Translations under genes and position numbers: made by a program
The notes under the pieces: generated by a model
Database searches by the model: none
The model's input: the letters and a program-made list of their open reading frames with translations, nothing else
What the model was told of the DNA's origin: nothing
Assembly (NCBI GenBank): GCA_035528275.1
Contig: DATKYV010000010.1
Coordinates: 1 to 52,077, forward strand
From: Terriglobia bacterium
Lineage (GTDB): Bacteria; Acidobacteriota; Terriglobia; UBA7540
DNA: 52,077 nt
Direction: 5' to 3'
Shown: piece after piece, positions 3,668 through 12,007 of the stretch
How positions within the stretch are numbered: the stretch's first letter is position 1
How the letters are laid out: each line of letters begins with the position of its first letter

Positions 3668-4516
3668 ATGCCCAGACCACCCCTTTGCCGCCGCATAGCT
3701 CAAAACCCTGGTGCCAACTACTTCAAACCGCGAGGCATTCCTCTCCACGAGCTCGAAGAAGTCGTGCTGGCCGTTGACGAACTGGAGGCATTGCGCCTGG
3801 CGGACCAAGAGGGGATGTATCAGGATCAAGCGGCGGAGCTGATGAAGATCTCGAGGCCCACCTTTGGCCGGATCGTTGAGACCGCGCGCCGCAAGGTGGC
3901 CGAAGCCTTGGTGGAGGGCAAAGCCTTGAGGATTGAGGGAGGGAATTTCGAAATGGCAGACTTGCGGAGTTTCCAGTGCAGCGAGTGCGGTCAGACGTGG
4001 CAAGTGGCGTTTGGGACGGGTCGGCCGACGGAGTGCTCGGACTGCCACAGCCGCAAGATTCACCGTGCCGCCGGGGGTCGCGGTGGGGCGCGGCCCGCGC
4101 GCAAATCCCCAGGGAGGAAACGCATGAAAATCGCGGTGGCTACATCCGACGGCATTCATATTTCGCCGCATTTCGGCCGCAGTTCGCATTTCCTGGTTTT
4201 CAGCGTCGAGGAGGGAAGAATCCTCGGCAAGGAACTGCGGAGCAACACTTTCACTGCCCACGCCCGGGGCGAATGCCACGGCGACGGGCAACACGATCAC
4301 GGCGCGCACAGCCACGCCTTAATCGTACAGGCGCTTAGCGACTGCGGAGCCGTCCTCTGCTACGGCATGGGATGGCGGGCCGCGGAAGCACTGGGCCAGG
4401 CGGGGATCCAGCCCTACCTTCTGAGAGAGCAAGCCACTCCGGAACGGGCCGTCGCCTTGCTCCTCGACGGCAAGTTGCAGCCGGCGAGTCAAGATTTCTG
4501 CCGACAGCATGAGTGA
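3668..4516 (+). CDS. fusion protein: DUF134-type HTH domain + CxxC..CxxC zinc ribbon + NifB/NifX-like cofactor-binding domain
   Basis: The N-terminus (CRRIAQNPGANYFKPRGIPLHELEEVVLAVDELEALRLADQEGMYQDQAAELMKISRPTFGRIVETARRKVAEAL) is DUF134/UPF0251-like. FQCSECG...ECSDCH is a zinc ribbon. MKIAVATSDGIHISPHFGRSSHFLVFSVEEG... is NifX/NifB-like, with a His-rich insert HGDGQHDHGAHSH. Confidence 0.8.
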   Translation: MPRPPLCRRIAQNPGANYFKPRGIPLHELEEVVLAVDELEALRLADQEGMYQDQAAELMKISRPTFGRIVETARRKVAEALVEGKALRIEGGNFEMADLRSFQCSECGQTWQVAFGTGRPTECSDCHSRKIHRAAGGRGGARPARKSPGRKRMKIAVATSDGIHISPHFGRSSHFLVFSVEEGRILGKELRSNTFTAHARGECHGDGQHDHGAHSHALIVQALSDCGAVLCYGMGWRAAEALGQAGIQPYLLREQATPERAVALLLDGKLQPASQDFCRQHE

Positions 4517-4701
4517 AGGGCGCGCCGGTCAGGAGGTGGACCAAGGATTCTCGGACGCCCGTGCAGGTGCTCACCCATTCAGTTGAGGTGAGTTCTTATC
4601 TCGAAGCGATGCAATTCGGCGCGTTGGACTACATGGACAAGCCCGCCAGCGCAAACGAGGTCCTGAAGCTGGTGGCCGCACGTGTTCGCAGCCGGAACTA
4701 G
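4513..4701 (+). pseudogene. remnant of a response-regulator receiver domain (C-terminal part only)
   Basis: TPVQVLTHSVEVSSYLEAMQFGALDYMDKPASANEVLKLV matches the beta4-alpha5 end of REC domains (xVIxLTaxxxxxxxxxAxxxGAxDYLxKP). The N-terminal half with the phosphoacceptor Asp is absent. Confidence 0.55.
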
Positions 4702-4721
4702 ACCATCCGGCAGGTGCCGCT

Positions 4722-5471
4722 ATGCCGAAACTAGCGTGGGTGGTGATCTTCAGCTTGCTGGGCAGTCTGGGGGTGGTTTTGGGAGCGGGGGTGCTGCTGC
4801 TTTCTGTGGCGGAAAGACGCCGGCGCTTGCTTCCCAGCCTCGTCAGTTACGCAGTAGGGACGTTGCTCGGGGCTGCTTTTCTGGGGATGCTTCCGCGAGC
4901 ACTTGAAGGGGGGCGTGTTAGCGCGGTGCTCTCAACCACGCTTTTCGGTGTCGTCCTGTTTTTCATTCTGGAGAAATGGGTTCTGTGGCGGCACTGTCAT
5001 CAGGCCGAGTGCGATATCCACTCTTCGGCCGGGCCGCTGATTCTGGCCGGGGACGCGTTTCACAACTTTGTGGACGGGTTTGCGATTGCAGCTGCCTTTC
5101 TGGCCTCGGTTCCACTAGGGATATCCACTTCCTTGGCGGTGATTGCCCACGAGATTCCTCAGGAACTCGGGGATTTCGCCATCCTGCTGGACAGTGGCTA
5201 TGGCCGAAGTCGCGCGCTCGTCTACAATCTGCTTTCCAGCGCAACGACCCTGCCGGGAGCATTGATTGCCTATTTCGCGCTTTCAGCGCTGAGCAGGACT
5301 ATCCCTTACGTCCTGGCCATTTCCGCCGCCAGCTTTATCTATATTGCCGCCGCCGACTTGATTCCTGGTCTTCACCGCGAGATGAGTCCCCACTCCGGCC
5401 TGCGGCAGATGGTGTTACTGCTGGCCGGGATCGTCACCATCCTGCTCCTGCGAATGGTTGATATAAGTTAG
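4722..5471 (+). CDS. ZIP family (ZupT/GufA-like) divalent metal transporter
   Basis: Polytopic membrane protein carrying the ZIP signature HEIPQELGDFAILLDSG. Confidence 0.85.
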   Translation: MPKLAWVVIFSLLGSLGVVLGAGVLLLSVAERRRRLLPSLVSYAVGTLLGAAFLGMLPRALEGGRVSAVLSTTLFGVVLFFILEKWVLWRHCHQAECDIHSSAGPLILAGDAFHNFVDGFAIAAAFLASVPLGISTSLAVIAHEIPQELGDFAILLDSGYGRSRALVYNLLSSATTLPGALIAYFALSALSRTIPYVLAISAASFIYIAAADLIPGLHREMSPHSGLRQMVLLLAGIVTILLLRMVDIS

Positions 5472-5524: not shown

Positions 5525-5570
5525 AAAAAAGGACCAGAGCAAGAGAATCCCGCTGCGGCCCGCGGGTCCC
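5525..5570 (-). terminator. possible terminator after the OsmC-ending operon
   Basis: On the minus strand, a GC-rich imperfect hairpin (GGGACCCGCGGGCCGCAGCGGG...GGTCC) is followed by T6 (A6 at 5525-5530 on the plus strand). Stem pairing is ambiguous. Confidence 0.3.
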
Positions 5571-5577
5571 TCCGGGG

Positions 5578-6033
5578 TTATGCCGCCGTGGCCACGCGAA
5601 AGTCCGGAAAAATCTTCACCTGGGCCGTGATCGAGTTTGTGATCAAGCACTTCTTGTGGGCGCTTTCGATGATTTCGCGGGCCTTGGAAACGTCATCTTG
5701 TGACTTCACCACGATGTGTGGGTGAAGGAGGATTTCGGTGAAACGGTAACTGCCTTCCTGGAATTCCAACACACCTTCGGCGTCCGATTCGTAAGCGGCA
5801 ACGGCCAGGCCCTTGTTCTCCGCGAAGGCCGCGAAGGTCATCAGCGTGCACACATTGACGGAGGCCACGAACATGTCTTCCGGAGTCCAGATTCCCGCCT
5901 CGCCCCTGAATTCCGGGGGACTCGAAACCTCCACATCAGGCTTGCCCGACGAACAAATCACACCGCGCCGTCCTGATTTCCAGCGCACTTCGCTCTCAAA
6001 TCGAAAGACCTTATACGTTTTCTTGGCTTCCAT
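5578..6033 (-). CDS. OsmC/Ohr family peroxiredoxin-like protein
   Basis: MEAKKTYKVFRFESEVRWKSGRRGVICSSGKPDVEVSSPPEFRG...PEDMFVASVNVCTLMTF...HKKCLITNS is OsmC-like with two conserved Cys. The start at 6033 is preceded by GGAGGA; the 20 N-terminal codons in the ORF track look spurious. Confidence 0.8.
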   Translation of the reverse strand: MEAKKTYKVFRFESEVRWKSGRRGVICSSGKPDVEVSSPPEFRGEAGIWTPEDMFVASVNVCTLMTFAAFAENKGLAVAAYESDAEGVLEFQEGSYRFTEILLHPHIVVKSQDDVSKAREIIESAHKKCLITNSITAQVKIFPDFRVATAA

Positions 6034-6089
6034 GGAATCCTCCGGCGGCCGAGGTGAGGTTAGCCTGATAACGCAAAATGGCCCCCACA

Positions 6090-6392
6090 TCAAGAAGAGA
6101 TGCCCGGAGACGCGCTGGCGTTACGGGCATCGGCGCGGAGGCGACGCATCGCCTGGCGGAACTCTTCCTTGCTGGGAAACGAGATGGCCTTCTCATGGCA
6201 AAGCTGGGCGCAACTATCGCAGCCCGGAACGCATCGGTAAGGATGGGCCACAACCGGACGCCCGGAGTTTCGATCCCACTCGAAGACCTCCGCAGGGCAA
6301 AAGTTGAGGCATTTCAGGTCTGAAAGACAGATGGAGTAGTCGATTTTCGGGAACCAAGGGAGTTTTTCCCTGAGATGTTCCGAGTTTTCCAT
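6090..6392 (-). CDS. small ferredoxin-like Cys-cluster protein
   Basis: MENSEHLREKLPWFPKIDYSICLSDLKCLNFCPAEVF...RCVPGCDSCAQLCHEKAISFP has two Cys clusters (C-x5-C-x3-CP and C-x3-C-x2-C-x3-C). GGAGG precedes the ATG at 6392. Confidence 0.7.
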   Translation of the reverse strand: MENSEHLREKLPWFPKIDYSICLSDLKCLNFCPAEVFEWDRNSGRPVVAHPYRCVPGCDSCAQLCHEKAISFPSKEEFRQAMRRLRADARNASASPGISS

Positions 6393-6477
6393 CAGCGTGA
6401 ACCTCCGTTCTTTCCTTCCTCGTGCCAATCGCGCAACCCCCACCGACGAGTCGACCGCCGGCGGGCACAACCTCCGC

Positions 6478-6777
6478 TCATGCTGCCTTTGGGCCGGGCG
6501 TCTTCTTTACCACGTCATCCCGTCGAACGCCCTCGGCCAAGAACGACCGGTAAAGCTCTTCGAGGGATTTTGCATAGACCGCCTCGAAGCCGGGCTCAAT
6601 ATAGTTGCCCGCCGCCCGCACCCCGGAAATGAGTCGCTCCTCCAAACCTGGTTGCCCGGGCCGCCAGCCCTCGCGGTAAACGTCCTCGAGCAGTTGGTCC
6701 AGGCCCGTCAATCCCGCCTTCGAAGTGCCGATTTTGATGATTCGGACGCCGCGATTGCCGCAGCAAGACCGACCCAT
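6478..6777 (-). CDS. hypothetical 99-aa protein with N-terminal vicinal cysteines (MGRSCCGN)
   Basis: The ORF sits in operon context with coding-like composition. I do not recognise the family. Confidence 0.6.
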   Translation of the reverse strand: MGRSCCGNRGVRIIKIGTSKAGLTGLDQLLEDVYREGWRPGQPGLEERLISGVRAAGNYIEPGFEAVYAKSLEELYRSFLAEGVRRDDVVKKTPGPKAA

Positions 6778-6858
6778 GGTGCCCTTCCCGACGGCGCTGG
6801 ATTCCAGTCTCCCTCCGCTGGCGCCGTCAGGAATGTGACGGCTCCGAGCAGTCTCCTG

Positions 6859-7554
6859 TCATGAGAAGACACCGAATATGTAGGCCAGCGAGAAGTAGAT
6901 TCCGACCAAGACGAAGATCCCTCCCGTGACGCGGCGGGCCCACTTTTCTATTTGCGTCAACTTATTGAACGCCTTGCCGACCCACTGTGCGCCCAGGCCG
7001 ATGAGGATGGCGAAGGCGAAGACCGGCAGACCCGTCCCGATGCCGTAAAGTGAAGGCAACGTCACGCTGGAGCCCGTATTGAGGGCGAGCGGAATCAGGC
7101 TGCCGAAAAACAGCGCTGCCGAGACCGGGCAGAACGCCAGCGCGAAAATCATCCCCAGCGGCAGGCTCCCCCACACGCCCGCCGACTCCGCCCAACGCTG
7201 GAGCCTCTCTCCTCCGACCGAAGTCGAGAAGCGCAGCGGGATCACATCCAGGAGGATGAGGCCCACCAGGAGCAGGAGTGGTCCCAGGACCTTGTTCATA
7301 TACGTCTGAAGAAACATCGCCACTTCCGGAATAGAAAGCAGACTGGCCACCAGCAGGGCGCTGAGGATGAGATAGGTGAGCGTTCGCCCGAGGGTGTAGA
7401 GAATCCCTGTGGCCAGAACGCGGCGGGCGCTTCCCACCCCGCGGGCAATGAAGGAAATCGCCGCCACGTTGGTGGCCAGCGGGCAGGGACTGATGGAAGT
7501 GAGGATGCCCAGCCAGAGCGCCGTCGCTGCTGCGAGAACGATTCCTTCGCTCAT
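6859..7554 (-). CDS. DsbD_2/CcdA-like polytopic membrane protein (ArsG-family-like)
   Basis: GILTSISPCPLATNVAAISF and FCPVSAALFFG motifs sit in a hydrophobic protein. This resembles proteins annotated as ArsG-family permeases or DsbD_2 (from memory). Confidence 0.8.
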   Translation of the reverse strand: MSEGIVLAAATALWLGILTSISPCPLATNVAAISFIARGVGSARRVLATGILYTLGRTLTYLILSALLVASLLSIPEVAMFLQTYMNKVLGPLLLLVGLILLDVIPLRFSTSVGGERLQRWAESAGVWGSLPLGMIFALAFCPVSAALFFGSLIPLALNTGSSVTLPSLYGIGTGLPVFAFAILIGLGAQWVGKAFNKLTQIEKWARRVTGGIFVLVGIYFSLAYIFGVFS

Positions 7555-8027
7555 GACGCCTCCAGGTAGGACCGCACTTCATCCTGGACGTAGCGCTGGA
7601 AGGCGTCCTTGCGGTTGACCAGTTCCCAGACGCGGCGCAGGTTCTTCCACTCCGTCTGCTTGCCGTCCTTGAGCTTCACGACGATGACCGACTTGGTGAA
7701 GAGCTGGTAGTCGCCGACGAAATGGCGGTTCGCCCGTTCTTCAATGTTCACCACGCGCCATTCCAATTCTCCGCTCTTCAGTGCGCCGGCGAAACCCTGT
7801 TCAAGGGCTTCCCCGGAAAGAGCCTCGATCTTCCGACACGTGCTGCATCGGGCGTTGGTATGAAAGTAGTACGCAATGACTTTGGGGGAGGACGACTGAT
7901 GTTCCGCTGGTAGGGCAGGGGGCGAATCGGCCTCCGCGGCGCGGGGAGTCTCGCGGATGACCATGACCGCGACCAGCGTTGCCAGAGAGAGCAGCAACGA
8001 GACCTTGACGATAAATTGCGTTTTCAC
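7551..8027 (-). CDS. membrane-anchored thioredoxin-like protein (ArsF-family-like)
   Basis: An N-terminal TM segment is followed by KVIAYYFHTNARCSTCRKIE (CxxC). Its stop overlaps the start of the downstream gene by 4 nt (ATGA). Confidence 0.7.
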   Translation of the reverse strand: MKTQFIVKVSLLLSLATLVAVMVIRETPRAAEADSPPALPAEHQSSSPKVIAYYFHTNARCSTCRKIEALSGEALEQGFAGALKSGELEWRVVNIEERANRHFVGDYQLFTKSVIVVKLKDGKQTEWKNLRRVWELVNRKDAFQRYVQDEVRSYLEAS

Positions 8028-8066
8028 CAGATTCCCTCCTCCGTTTGATGCACTCCTGGATGGGGC

Positions 8067-8357
8067 TCAAATCTGCGAGCAACCGCAGCCGAGACCCGGG
8101 CCAAAGGCCGTCGCCTCGGATTCGAGGATCTTCTTAACCTCGCCGACCGACGGAACTTGTCCTTGGATCTTGACTTCTCCGTCCACGGCGAGCGCCGGAG
8201 TCCGCATCACGCCGTAGCGGAGGATGACGCCGATGTCCGAGATCTTTTCGAGCTTGTACTCCAGCCCTAATCCCTGCGCCGCCGCCTTGACGTTCGCGGC
8301 TAACTTCTGGCAATTGGGGCAGCCCGGGCCCAGGATGTCCAGTCTCATGGGAATCAT
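8067..8357 (-). CDS. thioredoxin-fold 'redox-active disulfide protein 2'-like protein with a C-terminal GCGC tail
   Basis: MIPMRLDILGPGCPNCQKLAANVKAAA...TPALAVDGEVK has a CPNC active site and ends ...GPGLGCGCSQI. GAGGAGGAG precedes the ATG at 8357. The upstream 96 codons of the track ORF belong to a different, decayed gene. Confidence 0.8.
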   Translation of the reverse strand: MIPMRLDILGPGCPNCQKLAANVKAAAQGLGLEYKLEKISDIGVILRYGVMRTPALAVDGEVKIQGQVPSVGEVKKILESEATAFGPGLGCGCSQI

Positions 8358-8376
8358 CTGCTCCTCCTCGTGGTGC

Positions 8377-8645
8377 TCAATACCTGGCGGTACGAGGAGG
8401 CTCAGCCCTCGTGCTCTTCTGCCGCCGGCCCGACCACGGCCGCCTGAGCCCCGGCCTCCTGGCGCAACTGTCGCAACCCAGCACGCAATTGTTCGGTTGC
8501 GAGACGACGACCCGCGCCGTCTCTTCTTCCCAGGCGAAGACGCCGCTCTTGCAGAAGTCCAGGCAATCCTGGTCGGCGATGCAGGTGTCGTAATTGATGG
8601 TGGGGAACCAGTGGATTTTTCCCGCGGAATCGTCACGCTCGACAT
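8377..8645 (-). pseudogene. frameshifted, degraded paralog of the ferredoxin-like gene at 6090-6392
   Basis: MSSVTIPREK (ATG at 8645) continues in another frame as IHWFPTINYDTCIADQDCLDFCKSGVFAWEEETARVVVSQPNNCVLGCDSCA. Nucleotide alignment with the paralog (gaa aaa ctc cct tgg ttc vs gaa aaa -tc cac tgg ttc) shows one missing base at an A5 run near 8616-8620. The final Cys / AISFP segment is also missing. Confidence 0.6.
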
Positions 8646-8686
8646 AACAGGTCCTTTCGGTCCGTCTCCGCGCCAGTCGCCGGCGC

Positions 8687-9097
8687 TCAGGCCGCGGGCG
8701 CGGCGGAGGCGAGCTTCTTGGATTCCTTCTTGCGGATAAGGGCCTCGACCGCTTCTTTCAACCGAGCTAGGATGCCGTCGTTGTTGGTGCCGCGGATATC
8801 CAGCGGGACGAATCGGCTTTCGGGAAACTCGGTTTTGCGCATCACCTTCTTAAACAACTTGAACTGAGCTTCCGGGGCGCAGGCGCCGCCCACCACGTAG
8901 GCTTCCGGGTCGGGGGCACACTCCCGCATGATGTCGGCGACGAGTTCGTTCCCGCCCTGGCCGCAGAGCTGTGGGTGAACAATGGTGTAGTCGACGTCCA
9001 ATTCAGACTCCACCTGGAAGGGCAGTGTATTCATGTCAGTGTTTTTGAATGACGGGCAGAGCCCCTTACAGTTGCAGAGCAGAATCTTGATCTTCAT
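8687..9097 (-). CDS. Cys-rich 136-aa protein; resembles a standalone version of a Cys-rich segment of HdrA/Qmo-type heterodisulfide-reductase-like proteins
   Basis: MKIKILLCNCKGLCPSF...HPQLCGQGG...YVVGGACAPEAQFKLF...VPLDIRG. The similarity to the HdrA 'CxC...AACSP...NIR' region is recalled from memory, not verified. Confidence 0.65.
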   Translation of the reverse strand: MKIKILLCNCKGLCPSFKNTDMNTLPFQVESELDVDYTIVHPQLCGQGGNELVADIMRECAPDPEAYVVGGACAPEAQFKLFKKVMRKTEFPESRFVPLDIRGTNNDGILARLKEAVEALIRKKESKKLASAAPAA

Positions 9098-9148
9098 GGT
9101 GATCCTCTTCGGGAACTGGATTCCTTCCTCTTTCCCGTGCTTGAACCG

Positions 9149-9580
9149 CTAGGCGGCCCGGGCGTCGCCGTTTTCTTCCCCTTGCCCCTCATCGCTCGCC
9201 GGCGACGCGCTGTCGGTTGGGCTTGTCACGATCTGCAATCCCAGCGACTTGAGCCTCCCTGAACTTTCCAGGGTGTTCAGCAGCTCCAAGTCAGCCCGAA
9301 AGGTTTCGGACGATGGCAGCACTTCGCGCAAAAACGCGCGGAGGGCTTGGATTGCCGGTGAGTCAGGAGCCAGCGAGTAACAGACACGCGGGCCTTCACG
9401 CTGATCTTTCACCAAGCCAACGCGGCGCAGATAAGCTAAGTGGCGGGAAATGAACGGCTGAGACAAGCCGAGGACTGACTGCAGGTCACAAACGCAACTG
9501 CTCCGCTCGGACAATATGTTCACAATTCGGAGCCGATTGGCGTCTGCCAACGCCCTGAACAGCTTCGCCATTTGCGTCAT
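9149..9580 (-). CDS. arsR: ArsR/SmtB family transcriptional regulator with a CVC metalloid-binding-type motif
   Basis: MTQMAKLFRALADANRLRIVNILSERSSCVCDLQSVLGLSQPFISRHLAYLRRVGLV. GGAGAG precedes the ATG at 9580. Confidence 0.85.
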   Translation of the reverse strand: MTQMAKLFRALADANRLRIVNILSERSSCVCDLQSVLGLSQPFISRHLAYLRRVGLVKDQREGPRVCYSLAPDSPAIQALRAFLREVLPSSETFRADLELLNTLESSGRLKSLGLQIVTSPTDSASPASDEGQGEENGDARAA

Positions 9581-9590
9581 ATCGCTCTCC

Positions 9591-9613
9591 GCATATATGG
9601 CTAAGCATATGAG
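9591..9613 (-). promoter_or_regulatory. operator-like AT-rich element just upstream of arsR (9580)
   Basis: The minus strand reads CTCATATGCTTAGCCATATATGC. It contains ATATGCTTA, which is also found upstream of the second arsR and, with one change, in the 3621-3640 palindrome. Confidence 0.4.
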
Positions 9614-9818
9614 GTGCCAACTTCTCCCAATCAATGCGACCGTGGCCCGTCCTTGTCTGATGCCTTGGGACTCACCGCAGGGGAGGGCTGAACCGGTTCC
9701 ATCGAGGCTTTGGCCGCCGCTGGTTGTGCGTGGTCTCGCCCAGACGTCGGTCTCTGCTGCGCGGGAAGTGAGGGCTCTGAGGAACCCGTTTTCCCCCCAT
9801 TGCCAGGGCGATAAATAC

Positions 9819-9877: not shown

Positions 9878-10285
9878 ATGTCGGAGCTGGAAGGCTACTT
9901 TCGAGGATTGGCGGACACTACCCGTCTGCGAATTGTCAACCTACTCTTTTGGGGGGAGCTGTGCGGTTGTGACATTCAGCTTGTGCTGGAAACCTCGCAG
10001 CCCAACGTTTCGCGGCACCTGGTCTATTTGAAGCACGCGGGGTTGGTACAGGATCGGCGAGAGGGCTACCGCGTCTTTTACAAATTGGCCGAGCCGGGCA
10101 CCAAGACAACCAGGGAACTTTTCGAGTTTCTCCGGGTAGCCTTCAAACGTGACCGCAAGCTCCGCAACGACCTGCGAGTGTTGAAGGAGGCGATCAGGGA
10201 GGGAGCCTGCACGATTCAGCAGACTCATCCGTTCCCCAGATATACAGATAGCCCGCCGGCAGGTCGGCCCTCGGAGAGCACTTGA
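9878..10285 (+). CDS. arsR: ArsR/SmtB family transcriptional regulator (second copy, divergent)
   Basis: MSELEGYFRGLADTTRLRIVNLLFWGELCGCDIQLVLETSQPNVSRHLVYLKHAGLV has an ELCxCD motif like As(III)-sensing ArsR. GAGGTG precedes the ATG at 9878. Confidence 0.85.
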   Translation: MSELEGYFRGLADTTRLRIVNLLFWGELCGCDIQLVLETSQPNVSRHLVYLKHAGLVQDRREGYRVFYKLAEPGTKTTRELFEFLRVAFKRDRKLRNDLRVLKEAIREGACTIQQTHPFPRYTDSPPAGRPSEST

Positions 10286-10367
10286 ACAATGAATCTGGGG
10301 TCGAGTCACTGTTGGCCCGTTGCGCGCATAGGGGCCCAGTGGAAGCGGAAAGGAGAAGGAATTCCGC

Positions 10368-11510
10368 ATGATTGAAGCAAACCTGGCAACTGAAAACTTT
10401 GTGGTGCGGGCAATGAAGAGGTTTCAGAACTTCAAGATGCTCCCCGTATTCGTGCTTGTTAGTATGGCCATAGGGATTGGCATCGGCAAGCTCTACGGGA
10501 TATCGAACTTTTCGCTCACCCCGCCCATTGACGCCATCAAGTCGATCTTCCGAGGGACCTACGTATTCAACTTGCCCAATTCCTTGGCTTTGGGTGTAGT
10601 CGTCGGACTTTTTCTGATGATCTACCCGGCCATGGCGAACATACGGTTTGGTGACTTCGGCAAGGCGGTAAAATCACCCAAGCAGCTGCTCGTCGTTTTG
10701 CTTCTTAACTTCCTGGTGGCCCCTTTCTGGATGTATCTCCTGGCTACCATGTTCTTCCCGAAGGGTAGCGATTTCCATACGGCCCTGGTCCTCTACGGGC
10801 TGGCCCCGTGCATCGCCATGGTGATTGTGTTCACGTTTCTTGCGCTGGGCAACAACGCTCTGGCGGTAGTGCTCGTGGCCATGAACTCGATTATGCAAAT
10901 GATCCTCATCCCGATCTACGCAAAATGGCTGCTGGGCTCGGTTGATTTCAGTGTTGCCGTGGTGGCGGAGAGCGTCGTGCTGTACCTGGGTCTGCCGCTC
11001 GTGGCCGGATTCCTGACACGGCGCTGGGGGGTTGCCCGCTACGGCGAGGCGGGCTTCGGAAAGGTGAAGACCGTCCTGGATACTCTTTCCATTCTGGGCC
11101 TGCTTTTCACGCTTGTTGTCATGTTCGCTCTGAAGGGTGACCTCATTCTGGGCAGGCCGCAAATCATCCTGCACCTGGCGGCCCCGATGGCGATCTTCTT
11201 TTGGACGATGTTTCTGCTGGCTTATCTTGCCGGCTGGAAGCTGCGCTTCGGTTACGAGGATTCGGTGGCCGTGGGATTTAACTCGACCGGGCGCGACTTT
11301 GAGATTGCCATTGCGATTGCGATTACCGCGTTCAATCCGACCGTTGCACTGGCGACGGTTGTTGGTCCCCTGATTGAGGTTCCGGTGATGCTGGTTCTCG
11401 TCTGGTTTGCCCGCAAGACGCGCAGGGCGTTTTTTGGCACTGCACCAGGGGACAGGCCTTCCGCAGTCGGCAACAAACCAACCGAGGCGTATGAGAAGGT
11501 GATCCAGTGA
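10368..11510 (+). CDS. acr3: ACR3 family arsenite efflux transporter
   Basis: Polytopic membrane protein with LYGLAPCIAMVIVF and GRDFEIAIAIAI, matching the ACR3 signature regions (R/P-CIAMV, NFELAIAVAI). Confidence 0.85.
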   Translation: MIEANLATENFVVRAMKRFQNFKMLPVFVLVSMAIGIGIGKLYGISNFSLTPPIDAIKSIFRGTYVFNLPNSLALGVVVGLFLMIYPAMANIRFGDFGKAVKSPKQLLVVLLLNFLVAPFWMYLLATMFFPKGSDFHTALVLYGLAPCIAMVIVFTFLALGNNALAVVLVAMNSIMQMILIPIYAKWLLGSVDFSVAVVAESVVLYLGLPLVAGFLTRRWGVARYGEAGFGKVKTVLDTLSILGLLFTLVVMFALKGDLILGRPQIILHLAAPMAIFFWTMFLLAYLAGWKLRFGYEDSVAVGFNSTGRDFEIAIAIAITAFNPTVALATVVGPLIEVPVMLVLVWFARKTRRAFFGTAPGDRPSAVGNKPTEAYEKVIQ

Positions 11511-11767: not shown

Positions 11768-11846
11768 TGGGCCGGATCAAGAAGGCGTCGGGCACAGACC
11801 TTTGGGCCCCGATCGTCCCTTCGAACGCGGGGCACGTGATCCTGTG

Positions 11847-12007
11847 TTGAGGGTTCTCATGCTCTGCACCGGCGATTCTGCGCGCAGCCATACGGTAGAA
11901 GGTGTCCTTCGGTCCTTTTCCCGAGGGCAGTGGGTGGTTGAAAGCGCGGGGATCACCAGTCCCGTATCAACCCTATCGCAGTAGCGCGTAAGACTCCTGG
12001 CGTAAGT
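11847..12007 (+). pseudogene. arsC: decayed LMW-PTP-type arsenate reductase (frameshifted and truncated)
   Basis: RVLMLCTGDSARSHTVEGVLRSFSRGQWVVESAG matches the ArsC N-terminus (CTGNSxRS P-loop, here N>D). The continuation SRINPIAVARKTPGVS is in another frame, and the remainder is missing where the next gene begins. Confidence 0.6.

Follow-up and report, generated by a model that had tools for sequence, protein, structure and literature searches.

We analyzed a stretch of 52,077 nucleotides (the window; contig DATKYV010000010.1 of assembly GCA_035528275.1) from a Terriglobia bacterium and concentrated on a gene cluster on its minus strand, at 5578-9580, that stands under an ArsR-type repressor. 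Reading the sequence directly together with the list of open reading frames (ORFs) gave nine same-strand frames, eight of which are intact genes and the third a pseudogene. In order, they encode the repressor ArsR1, a cysteine-rich protein termed P2, the remnant of a ferredoxin (Fd1), ArsE, ArsF, ArsG, a small protein with two adjacent N-terminal cysteines (P7), a second ferredoxin (Fd2, or P8) and a member of the OsmC/Ohr superfamily. The intergenic gaps measure 51 nt between arsR1 and P2, 41 nt between P2 and Fd1 and 39 nt between arsE and arsF; the arsF and arsG genes overlap by 4 nt, and the gaps further downstream are, in order, 81, 85 and 56 nt. The nine genes are probably co-transcribed as one operon. 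A preliminary description of this DNA had reported the nine frames with a spacing from a 4-nt overlap to 85 nt, and we reproduced both the coordinates and the spacing as well as every motif it quoted (SSCVCDL; LLCNCKGLC, GGACAP and DIRG; CPNC and GCGCSQI; ARCSTC; SPCPLATN; MGRSCCGN; the ferredoxin spacings). Together with a divergent arsR2/ACR3 pair, the cluster is an arsenic island of an Acidobacteriota (Terriglobia-like) soil bacterium. What appears to be new in it are P2, the 7-Cys ferredoxin and P7, which recur as unnamed components of ars islands across phyla.

Genes 4 to 6 are assigned to the named arsEFG cassette by scores above the curated NCBIfam cut-offs, and they lie adjacent in E-F-G order downstream of ArsR. 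The arsE gene (8067-8357) encodes a thioredoxin-like protein with a CPNC motif and a C-terminal GCGC tail (GCGCSQI), which matched TIGR00412 (MTH895/ArsE) with 98.2 bits against a cut-off of 62 and PF13192 with 89.3 bits. Its GPGCxxC/CxxC motif is invariant among 15 homologues, and the GCGC/GCC cysteine tail occurs, among the aligned homologues, only in the window and at locus L004. The arsF product (7551-8027) consists of an N-terminal membrane anchor and a thioredoxin-like domain with an RCSTC motif; it scored 116.9 bits with NF040494 (cut-off 60), was not a member of the Pfam thioredoxin family in the Pfam scan, and keeps its anchor and RCxxC in every aligned full-length homologue. The arsG gene (6859-7554) encodes a DsbD_2/CcdA-like membrane protein with cysteines in SPCPL and FCP. 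It matched the equivalog model NF040495 with 290.1 bits (cut-off 200) and PF13386 (DsbD_2) with 54.6 bits (cut-off 24.9); the SPCPL cysteine is present in 13 of 13 homologues and the FCP cysteine in all 12 that cover the region. ArsG is also 42% identical to the ArsG that the Prokaryotic Genome Annotation Pipeline (PGAP) assigns in Fulvitalea, where, as in Prevotella, PGAP-annotated arsR-trx-arsF-arsG-permease cassettes are carried on Bacteroidota plasmids; these contain no P2, Fd or P7.

Since annotation pipelines routinely name its arsEFG core, which is a known cassette, the cluster does not belong to a new category of systems, and the suggestion in the preliminary description of a wholly undescribed one has to be given up. 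Its ArsF-like and ArsG-like assignments held, and gene 4 had escaped recognition as ArsE. It is the composite architecture that is new.

The arsR1 gene (9149-9580, minus strand) encodes an ArsR/SmtB repressor that matched NF033788 with 87.9 bits (cut-off 55) and the winged-helix family PF01022 (HTH_5) with 54.3 bits (cut-off 22). Its CVC, within SSCVCDL, sits where type-1 ArsR proteins have their As(III) site, in the region of the DNA-binding helix, and is kept in all six alignable ArsRs upstream of P2 homologues; the third cysteine of the R773 site is absent. ArsR1 would thus be a regulator whose release from DNA by As(III) derepresses the operon. Directly upstream of arsR1, at 9581-9619 on the minus strand, lies a conserved block, TGGCACCTCATATGCT, that is a candidate promoter and/or ArsR operator. 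In this block (TGGCACCTCATATGCTTAGCCATATATGCGGAGAG), GG and TGCT are invariant across five orthologous upstream regions, and TGGCAC-N5-ATGCT has the exact -24/-12 spacing of sigma-54 promoters; two matches to a sigma-54-like pattern were found in the window against 1.65 expected by chance, which is not significant alone. The block also holds a GGAGAG ribosome-binding site and a possible ArsR operator in the form of the palindrome ATATG-N6-CATAT. A consensus scan found no sigma-70 promoter, and the arsR1-arsR2 intergenic region held no inverted repeat at seed 6.

P2 (8687-9097, minus strand) is a stand-alone domain of 136 residues that resembles the N-terminal iron-sulfur (Fe-S) domain of HdrA. 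It belongs to no Pfam or NCBIfam family, and its more than 768 homologues are labelled only "hypothetical" or "HdrA-like polyferredoxin". In the homologue alignment five cysteines are invariant (C8, C10, C14, C45 and C73); the motifs LLCNCKGLC, GGACAP and DIRG stand out in the sequence. Three weak but concordant lines appear to link P2 to the HdrA domain. The NCBIfam HdrA model aligned residues 9-90 of its 771 positions with 15.5 bits (E 0.003; cut-off 1400); a P2 profile searched against the PDB aligned with residues 29-102 of HdrA chain 9sfi_A (E 0.33), with C45 and C73 on HdrA cysteines; and the top Foldseek matches of a predicted model, with a predicted local distance difference test (pLDDT) score of 76, were the HdrA chains 8rvu_A, 7bkd_A and 5odc_A (probability 1.0, E 3e-3 to 1.4e-2, template modelling score about 0.5). 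A full-length HdrA can be discarded, given a single domain of 136 residues that reaches 15.5 bits where 1400 are called for and lacks the flavin adenine dinucleotide (FAD)/polyferredoxin architecture. An arsenic-binding analogue of ArsD was set aside in favor of the HdrA-like Fe-S domain.

The gene next to P2, Fd1 (8377-8645, minus strand), is a pseudogene of a 7-Cys ferredoxin paralogous to gene 8, as established by DNA alignment with the intact copies at loci L004 and L084. One nucleotide is missing from a run of A between 8620 and 8619; between 8459 and 8458, a deletion of 73 nt takes out the last (fourth) cysteine of the second cluster motif; a tblastn search with Fd2 still found 50% identity across 8458-8619. 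A programmed frameshift was rejected because the 73-nt deletion also removes the last cluster ligand. The decay of gene 3, the HdrA-like character of gene 2 and the vicinal-cysteine, As(III)-type site of ArsR1 had all been anticipated from the sequence, and the alignments, the NCBIfam, PDB and Foldseek comparisons, the type-1 position of the CVC and the second ArsR and ACR3 back to back with arsR1 agree with these assignments. As a side effect, the two lesions create an ORF of 192 codons (8067-8645, minus strand) that runs from the ATG of Fd1 in frame into arsE, so that a gene caller could report a spuriously long ArsE; the real arsE start is the ATG at 8357, behind the ribosome-binding site GAGGAGGAG. 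Separately, at locus L014, in a metagenome-assembled genome (MAG) of Terriglobia, the ferredoxin downstream of P2 is split into two overlapping frames (8391-8772), which is either a frameshift or an assembly error and, if real, a second case of decay of this gene.

The intact ferredoxin Fd2 (6090-6392, minus strand) has seven cysteines in the pattern C-x5-C-x3-CP ... C-x3-C-x2-C-x3-C. Its first motif contains three cysteines (C-x5-C-x3-C) and hence is not of the CxxCxxCxxxCP type of Pfam Fer4, and its matches to Fer4-type families remained just below threshold (at best 22.7 bits against 25.5). The spacing 5-3-21-3-2-3 is constant in about 35 P2-linked copies; a canonical CxxCxxCxxxC first motif was found in only two (L082 and L055), neither of which adjoins ars genes. 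Membership in HgcB was excluded at 20-31 bits against a cut-off of 99. P2 is predicted to carry one [4Fe-4S] cluster, and the ferredoxin a [3Fe-4S] and a [4Fe-4S] cluster.

P7 (6478-6777, minus strand) is a protein of 99 residues with an N-terminal CC (MGRSCCGN) and a GNYI motif, and it matched no NCBIfam or Pfam family. A word-index search returned a single cluster of near-identical sequences, and an exhaustive phmmer search gave 60 representative homologues of about 85-110 residues, labelled only "hypothetical protein" in their sources. The family has a near-invariant N-terminal CC, an NY(I/V) motif with an invariant N58, and the residues E65 and Y68; several members, two fusions among them, lack the CC. 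The AlphaFold (AF2) model (pLDDT 85.6) predicts three helices and a beta hairpin, with the CC on a flexible tail, and a Foldseek comparison with PDB folds gave no match (best E 1.3). An ArsD-like protein or another known fold was therefore rejected, with no sequence match and this E value.

Gene fusions connect P7, as far as sequence can tell, to ArsE, ArsF and ferredoxin. P7 is fused to an ArsE-family domain in P0127 and P0168, fusions that arose twice, independently, and to a ferredoxin in P0150; in P0151, P7 is followed by one transmembrane helix and an ArsF-family domain. The CxxC domain of ArsF probably lies outside the cytoplasm, because P7 has no signal peptide and is joined elsewhere to a cytoplasmic Fe-S domain, and in P0151 the transmembrane helix separates it from the ArsF domain. 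The membrane-spanning cysteine relay sketched in the preliminary description accordingly finds its anatomical parts in the CxxC of ArsE, the membrane cysteines of ArsG, the anchor and CxxC of ArsF and the P7-transmembrane-ArsF fusion.

At other loci, too, P7 lies in what read as thiol-redox operons under ArsR. Its neighborhoods include Trx-DsbD-P7 (L083), ArsR-ArsP-ArsE-Trx-DsbD-TauE-P7-x-P2-Fd-SufC-SufBD (L085), ArsR-ACR3-P2-Fd-ArsP-P7::ArsE (L086), ArsM-P7::ArsF-ArsC-ACR3 (L080) and ArsR-P7::ArsE-HD followed by two FAD/Fer4 proteins (L091). No recognized ars or thiol-redox neighbor was found for P7::Fd in L082 or for P7-ThiF in L090. At L089 (2647-8298) the order is ArsR-ACR3-GcvH-DGC-DGC-P7-OsmC-Thioredoxin_3-75aa-DsbA-VKOR; here P7 once more adjoins OsmC, and the same locus encodes a lipoyl carrier and another type of transmembrane pair of thiol oxidoreductases. 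The P7 fusions and the Trx-DsbD-P7 adjacency argue for a direct interaction of P7 with the relay proteins.

The last gene of the cluster (5578-6033, minus strand) encodes an OsmC/Ohr-superfamily protein with both cysteines expected in the family. It matched PF02566 with 61.6 bits (cut-off 27.5) and remained under the cut-offs of the Ohr, OsmC and SACOL1771 subfamilies (64.7 bits against 166). Its terminal position is the same at L004 and L084, the two loci that bear on the composition of the cluster. L004, from an Acidobacteriota MAG, holds all nine genes in the same order, with 48-85% amino-acid identity, different flanks and an intact Fd1. L084 holds six genes in the order of the window, ArsR-P2-Fd1-P7-Fd2-OsmC, and no arsEFG; its Fd2 and OsmC are 67% and 66% identical to those of the window. 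With the same nine-gene order in L004 and six genes in order in L084, the arrangement is not due to chance. The nine genes form two separable modules because the six-gene module stands without arsEFG in L084, and the cluster reads as this module of six genes into which arsEFG has entered between Fd1 and P7. The neighborhood recurs outside this genome, at L004, and L084 contradicts the idea of one indivisible unit.

To place P2 in context, we scanned one genome per species, which gave 77 P2 loci, and called neighbors within 8 kb by tblastn with the window proteins and additional ars queries. The loci span Acidobacteriota, Nitrospirota, Armatimonadota, Obscuribacterales, Myxococcota and others. 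Of the 77, 47 have one or more structural ars genes in this range, with ACR3 at 28 loci, ArsC at 23, ArsM at 18, ArsA and ArsD at 15 each, ArsE at 15, and ArsF and ArsG at 12 each; ArsR lay near P2 at 40. A ferredoxin of the gene 8 type accompanies P2 at 31 of the 77 loci, nearly always directly downstream. The arrangements vary, for example ACR3-ArsD-ArsA-P2 (L069), P2-ArsC-ACR3 (L071) and ACR3-P2-ArsM (L012). Loci without structural ars genes are mostly from Nitrospira, where P2 stands beside the alpha and beta subunits of a 2-oxoacid:ferredoxin oxidoreductase (L038, 5656-7851) or beside DksA-like, SufC, SufBD and FeS_assembly_P genes and a pyruvate:ferredoxin oxidoreductase (PFOR) of 1117 residues (L052, 7553-14076). 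These contexts hint at a general role of P2 in Fe-S or ferredoxin metabolism. Since P2-Fd occurs with varied ars and Suf/PFOR genes, it need not serve ArsEFG, and it appears to be a general companion of ars genes and not a specific partner of ArsEFG.

Two further gene types were seen in these neighborhoods. A ProC-like oxidoreductase of the nicotinamide adenine dinucleotide phosphate (NADP) type, with F420_oxidored and P5CR_dimer domains by Pfam, lies near P2-Fd or ArsFG in L014; L013, L018 and L034 hold genes that look alike on visual inspection alone. In L030 and L085, Pfam identifies a membrane protein of the TauE/SafE type that separates ArsG from P2 or P7.

The surroundings of the cluster in the window contribute further ars genes. 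Divergent from arsR1 and back to back with it, 9878-11510 on the plus strand holds arsR2, with a CGC motif (NF033788, 80.8 bits), and an ACR3 arsenite efflux gene whose TIGR00832 score of 252 bits lies under the cut-off of 282.8. After ACR3, 11802-11984 (plus strand) encodes the N-terminal 34 or so residues of a thioredoxin-type (low-molecular-weight protein tyrosine phosphatase) arsenate reductase, ArsC; a full-length ArsC query found nothing in the window beyond this 34-residue stretch, which looks like a truncated remnant. At the other end, a terminator-like hairpin (5549-5566, minus strand) lies 12 nt past the osmC stop, from a weak consensus scan that found 10 sites against 5.5 expected in the region. 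Just past osmC, on the opposite strand (3668-5471, plus), are two genes, one for a protein of 282 residues whose N-terminus is DUF134-like and which also has a cofactor-binding domain of the NifB/NifX kind, the other for a ZIP/ZupT-like metal transporter.

Based on these findings, we favor, at a little under even confidence, an arsenic operon of two modules under one ArsR, in which an ArsE-ArsG-ArsF cysteine relay is supplied by an Fe-S module. As(III) would release ArsR1 and derepress the operon. Cytoplasmic ArsE, through its CxxC and, in this lineage, its GCGC tail, would then hand on to the two membrane cysteines of the CcdA-like ArsG, which would pass on to the anchored, outward-facing CxxC domain of ArsF. 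The cargo may be reducing equivalents that move outward, as along CcdA, or the trivalent (organo)arsenical itself, passed by ligand exchange like Hg(II) along MerP-MerT. Module A, comprising P2, the 7-Cys ferredoxins, P7 and OsmC, would be a cytoplasmic Fe-S redox module that gives low-potential electrons to thiol-based arsenic defenses in cells whose usual dithiol reductants are poisoned by As(III). P7 would serve as an adaptor for ArsE, ArsF or ferredoxin, on which it would dock. Through P2, Fd2 and P7, these electrons would reach the relay as well as other defenses based on thiols, OsmC included.

Several points weigh against this reading. Module A is found without arsEFG, and P2 keeps company with many kinds of ars genes and, in Nitrospira, with Suf and PFOR genes. 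The fold and profile matches of P2 are weak (E about 3e-3; model pLDDT 76), and the ferredoxin adjoining P2 is dead in the window. The topology hangs on one P7-transmembrane-ArsF fusion, known from a single sequence on a 2.1-kb contig, and the charges flanking the ArsF anchor do not decide it. The one experimental study known on ArsEFG, by Chen, Zhang and Rosen in 2019, is said to describe no electron relay; the relay and its induction are proposals drawn from sequence.

In that work, ArsEF reportedly acts as a nitroreductase on roxarsone and nitarsone in their trivalent forms, Rox(III) and Nit(III), and ArsG as a permease for efflux. Applied to the window, cytoplasmic ArsE and ArsF would reduce the nitro group of either arsenical, ArsG would export the amino product, and P2 and the ferredoxins would be the missing electron donors. 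All three proteins pass NCBIfam models built on the Shewanella system and keep the E-F-G order, low-potential Fe-S carriers would be natural donors for nitroreduction, and P2-Fd adjoins ArsE, ArsF or ArsG at about 15 loci. However, thioredoxin folds with only a CxxC would lack a flavin or metal site at which six electrons could be passed to a nitro group, the ArsF domain probably faces outward, and ArsG retains the CcdA cysteine pair. Synthetic nitro-aromatic arsenicals are also an unlikely selective agent across soil Acidobacteriota, Armatimonadota, Bacteroidota and oral Prevotella, and P2-Fd is linked as often to ACR3, ArsM and ArsC as to ArsEFG. We consider this explanation unlikely, at a level that still deserves attention.

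The modularity of the cluster raises another alternative, namely that two independent modules merely share a regulator. ArsR-P2-Fd-P7-Fd-OsmC would then be an arsenic-induced module for damage control, replacing or repairing Fe-S or ferredoxin-dependent electron flow and supplying a peroxiredoxin when As(III) blocks lipoamide and other dithiols, and the inserted arsEFG would work alone. The arsEFG-free locus L084 and the Bacteroidota cassettes without P2, Fd or P7 show each part standing by itself. Outside ars islands P2 adjoins SufC-SufBD, FeS_assembly_P and 2-oxoacid:ferredoxin oxidoreductases, within them it associates with all kinds of ars genes, and the P7-OsmC adjacency recurs with the lipoyl carrier GcvH in L089. 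This independence is difficult to reconcile with the fusion of P7 to ArsE and to ArsF in other organisms and with its place after a Trx-DsbD pair in unrelated contigs, and we judge the alternative improbable but not negligible. A sensor of persulfide, other thiol stress or a metal cation, with a general envelope thiol-redox system placed beside ars genes by chance, would agree with the existence of sulfide and sulfite sensors among ArsR/SmtB proteins and with sub-threshold weak matches of ArsR1 to the BigR, CmtR and TsoR models, but is very improbable in view of the CVC at the type-1 As(III) position, the bona fide ars structural genes of several phyla at 47 of 77 P2 loci, and the P7 fusions and neighbors that also occur in ArsR-ACR3, ArsC and ArsM operons.

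The Fe-S-supplied relay that we favor, the nitroreductase with its pump and the two independent modules are not mutually exclusive. In a further extension of the relay, which we regard as distinctly doubtful, P2, the 7-Cys ferredoxin and P7 would together form an arsenic-inducible, multi-phylum Fe-S electron-input system, a functional analogue of ferredoxin:thioredoxin reductase. If true, this system would keep the ArsE-ArsG-ArsF relay, ArsM, ArsC and OsmC reduced under As(III) stress, drawing on electrons at the ferredoxin level while As(III) poisons the lipoamide- and dithiol-based reductases. ArsEFG would then be misnamed: in place of a nitroreductase and a pump, it would be a transmembrane relay of thiols in the manner of CcdA, or a path along which As(III) is handed on.

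Genes for arsenic resistance have mostly been discovered by looking at the other members of ars operons. The families of P2, its 7-Cys ferredoxin and P7 are still unnamed, lack a Pfam or NCBIfam model and have no member of solved structure, and a literature search for ars operons with a heterodisulfide reductase, a ferredoxin or a cytochrome c biogenesis protein returned nothing on them. They recur under ArsR beside ACR3, ArsC, ArsM, ArsDA, ArsP and ArsEFG in Acidobacteriota, Nitrospirota, Armatimonadota, Obscuribacterales and others, and they are candidates for new ars functions that connect arsenic detoxification by thiols with electron transfer by Fe-S proteins. From the fusions and conserved cysteines comes a testable reason to revisit ArsEFG, in which a transmembrane cysteine relay may take the place of a nitroreductase plus permease. 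We regard the finding as a lead for arsenic microbiology that changes no principle.

Parts of the cluster resemble several known systems. Like the metallochaperone ArsD, P7 carries vicinal cysteines on a flexible N-terminal tail and is encoded in ars operons, but it has no sequence or fold similarity to ArsD, and several of its family members lack the CC. The 7Fe ferredoxins, with one [3Fe-4S] and one [4Fe-4S] cluster, include the Sulfolobus and Azotobacter types. The window ferredoxin resembles them in having three cysteines in its first motif (C-x5-C-x3-CP) and four in its second, and it gave a weak match to a Thermoplasmatales zinc-ferredoxin model. Compared by sequence, it differs in the N-terminal PREKIxWFPTIDY and the C-terminal AIxFP..EELR helix of its subfamily and in its second motif, C-x3-C-x2-C-x3-C. 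P2 aligns weakly to about residues 9-102 of HdrA, in its N-terminal [4Fe-4S]/MvhD-type domain, including the cysteines of hpqlCgqgG and gACaPe; unlike HdrA, it is a stand-alone protein of 136 residues without FAD and ferredoxin domains, has a fifth invariant cysteine (C14) and is linked to ars genes.

For the proposed relay, two membrane systems are of interest. MerP, MerT and MerA pass Hg(II) between cysteine pairs across the membrane and thereby set an example of a thiophilic ion transported through ligand exchange. The likeness lies in soluble CxxC proteins on both faces, a membrane cysteine pair and a metal-sensing regulator; there is, however, no sequence relationship, the direction in the window would be outward, and no MerA-like reductase was identified. 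In relays of the CcdA/DsbD type, a cytoplasmic thioredoxin reduces CcdA, which in turn reduces an anchored periplasmic thioredoxin-like protein (ResA, CcmG, TlpA). ArsG of the window shares the DsbD_2 fold with one invariant cysteine in each of two membrane segments, ArsE would be the cytoplasmic CxxC partner, and ArsF the N-terminally anchored one, probably facing outward. In contrast to CcdA and DsbD, the window genes stand under ArsR in ars islands and not in cytochrome c maturation loci, and their electron transfer is putative. Among the closest known systems is also ArsEFG of Shewanella putrefaciens 200; genes 4 to 6 match the three NCBIfam families above their cut-offs, in E-F-G order and downstream of ArsR. 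The window ArsE differs from it in an additional GCGC tail, and, in contrast to the annotated arsEFG cassettes that we examined, the window cassette sits in a six-gene module of Fe-S proteins, CC protein and OsmC. Taken together, the anatomy of the window arsEFG appears to suit a relay of thiols more than a nitroreductase with a pump.

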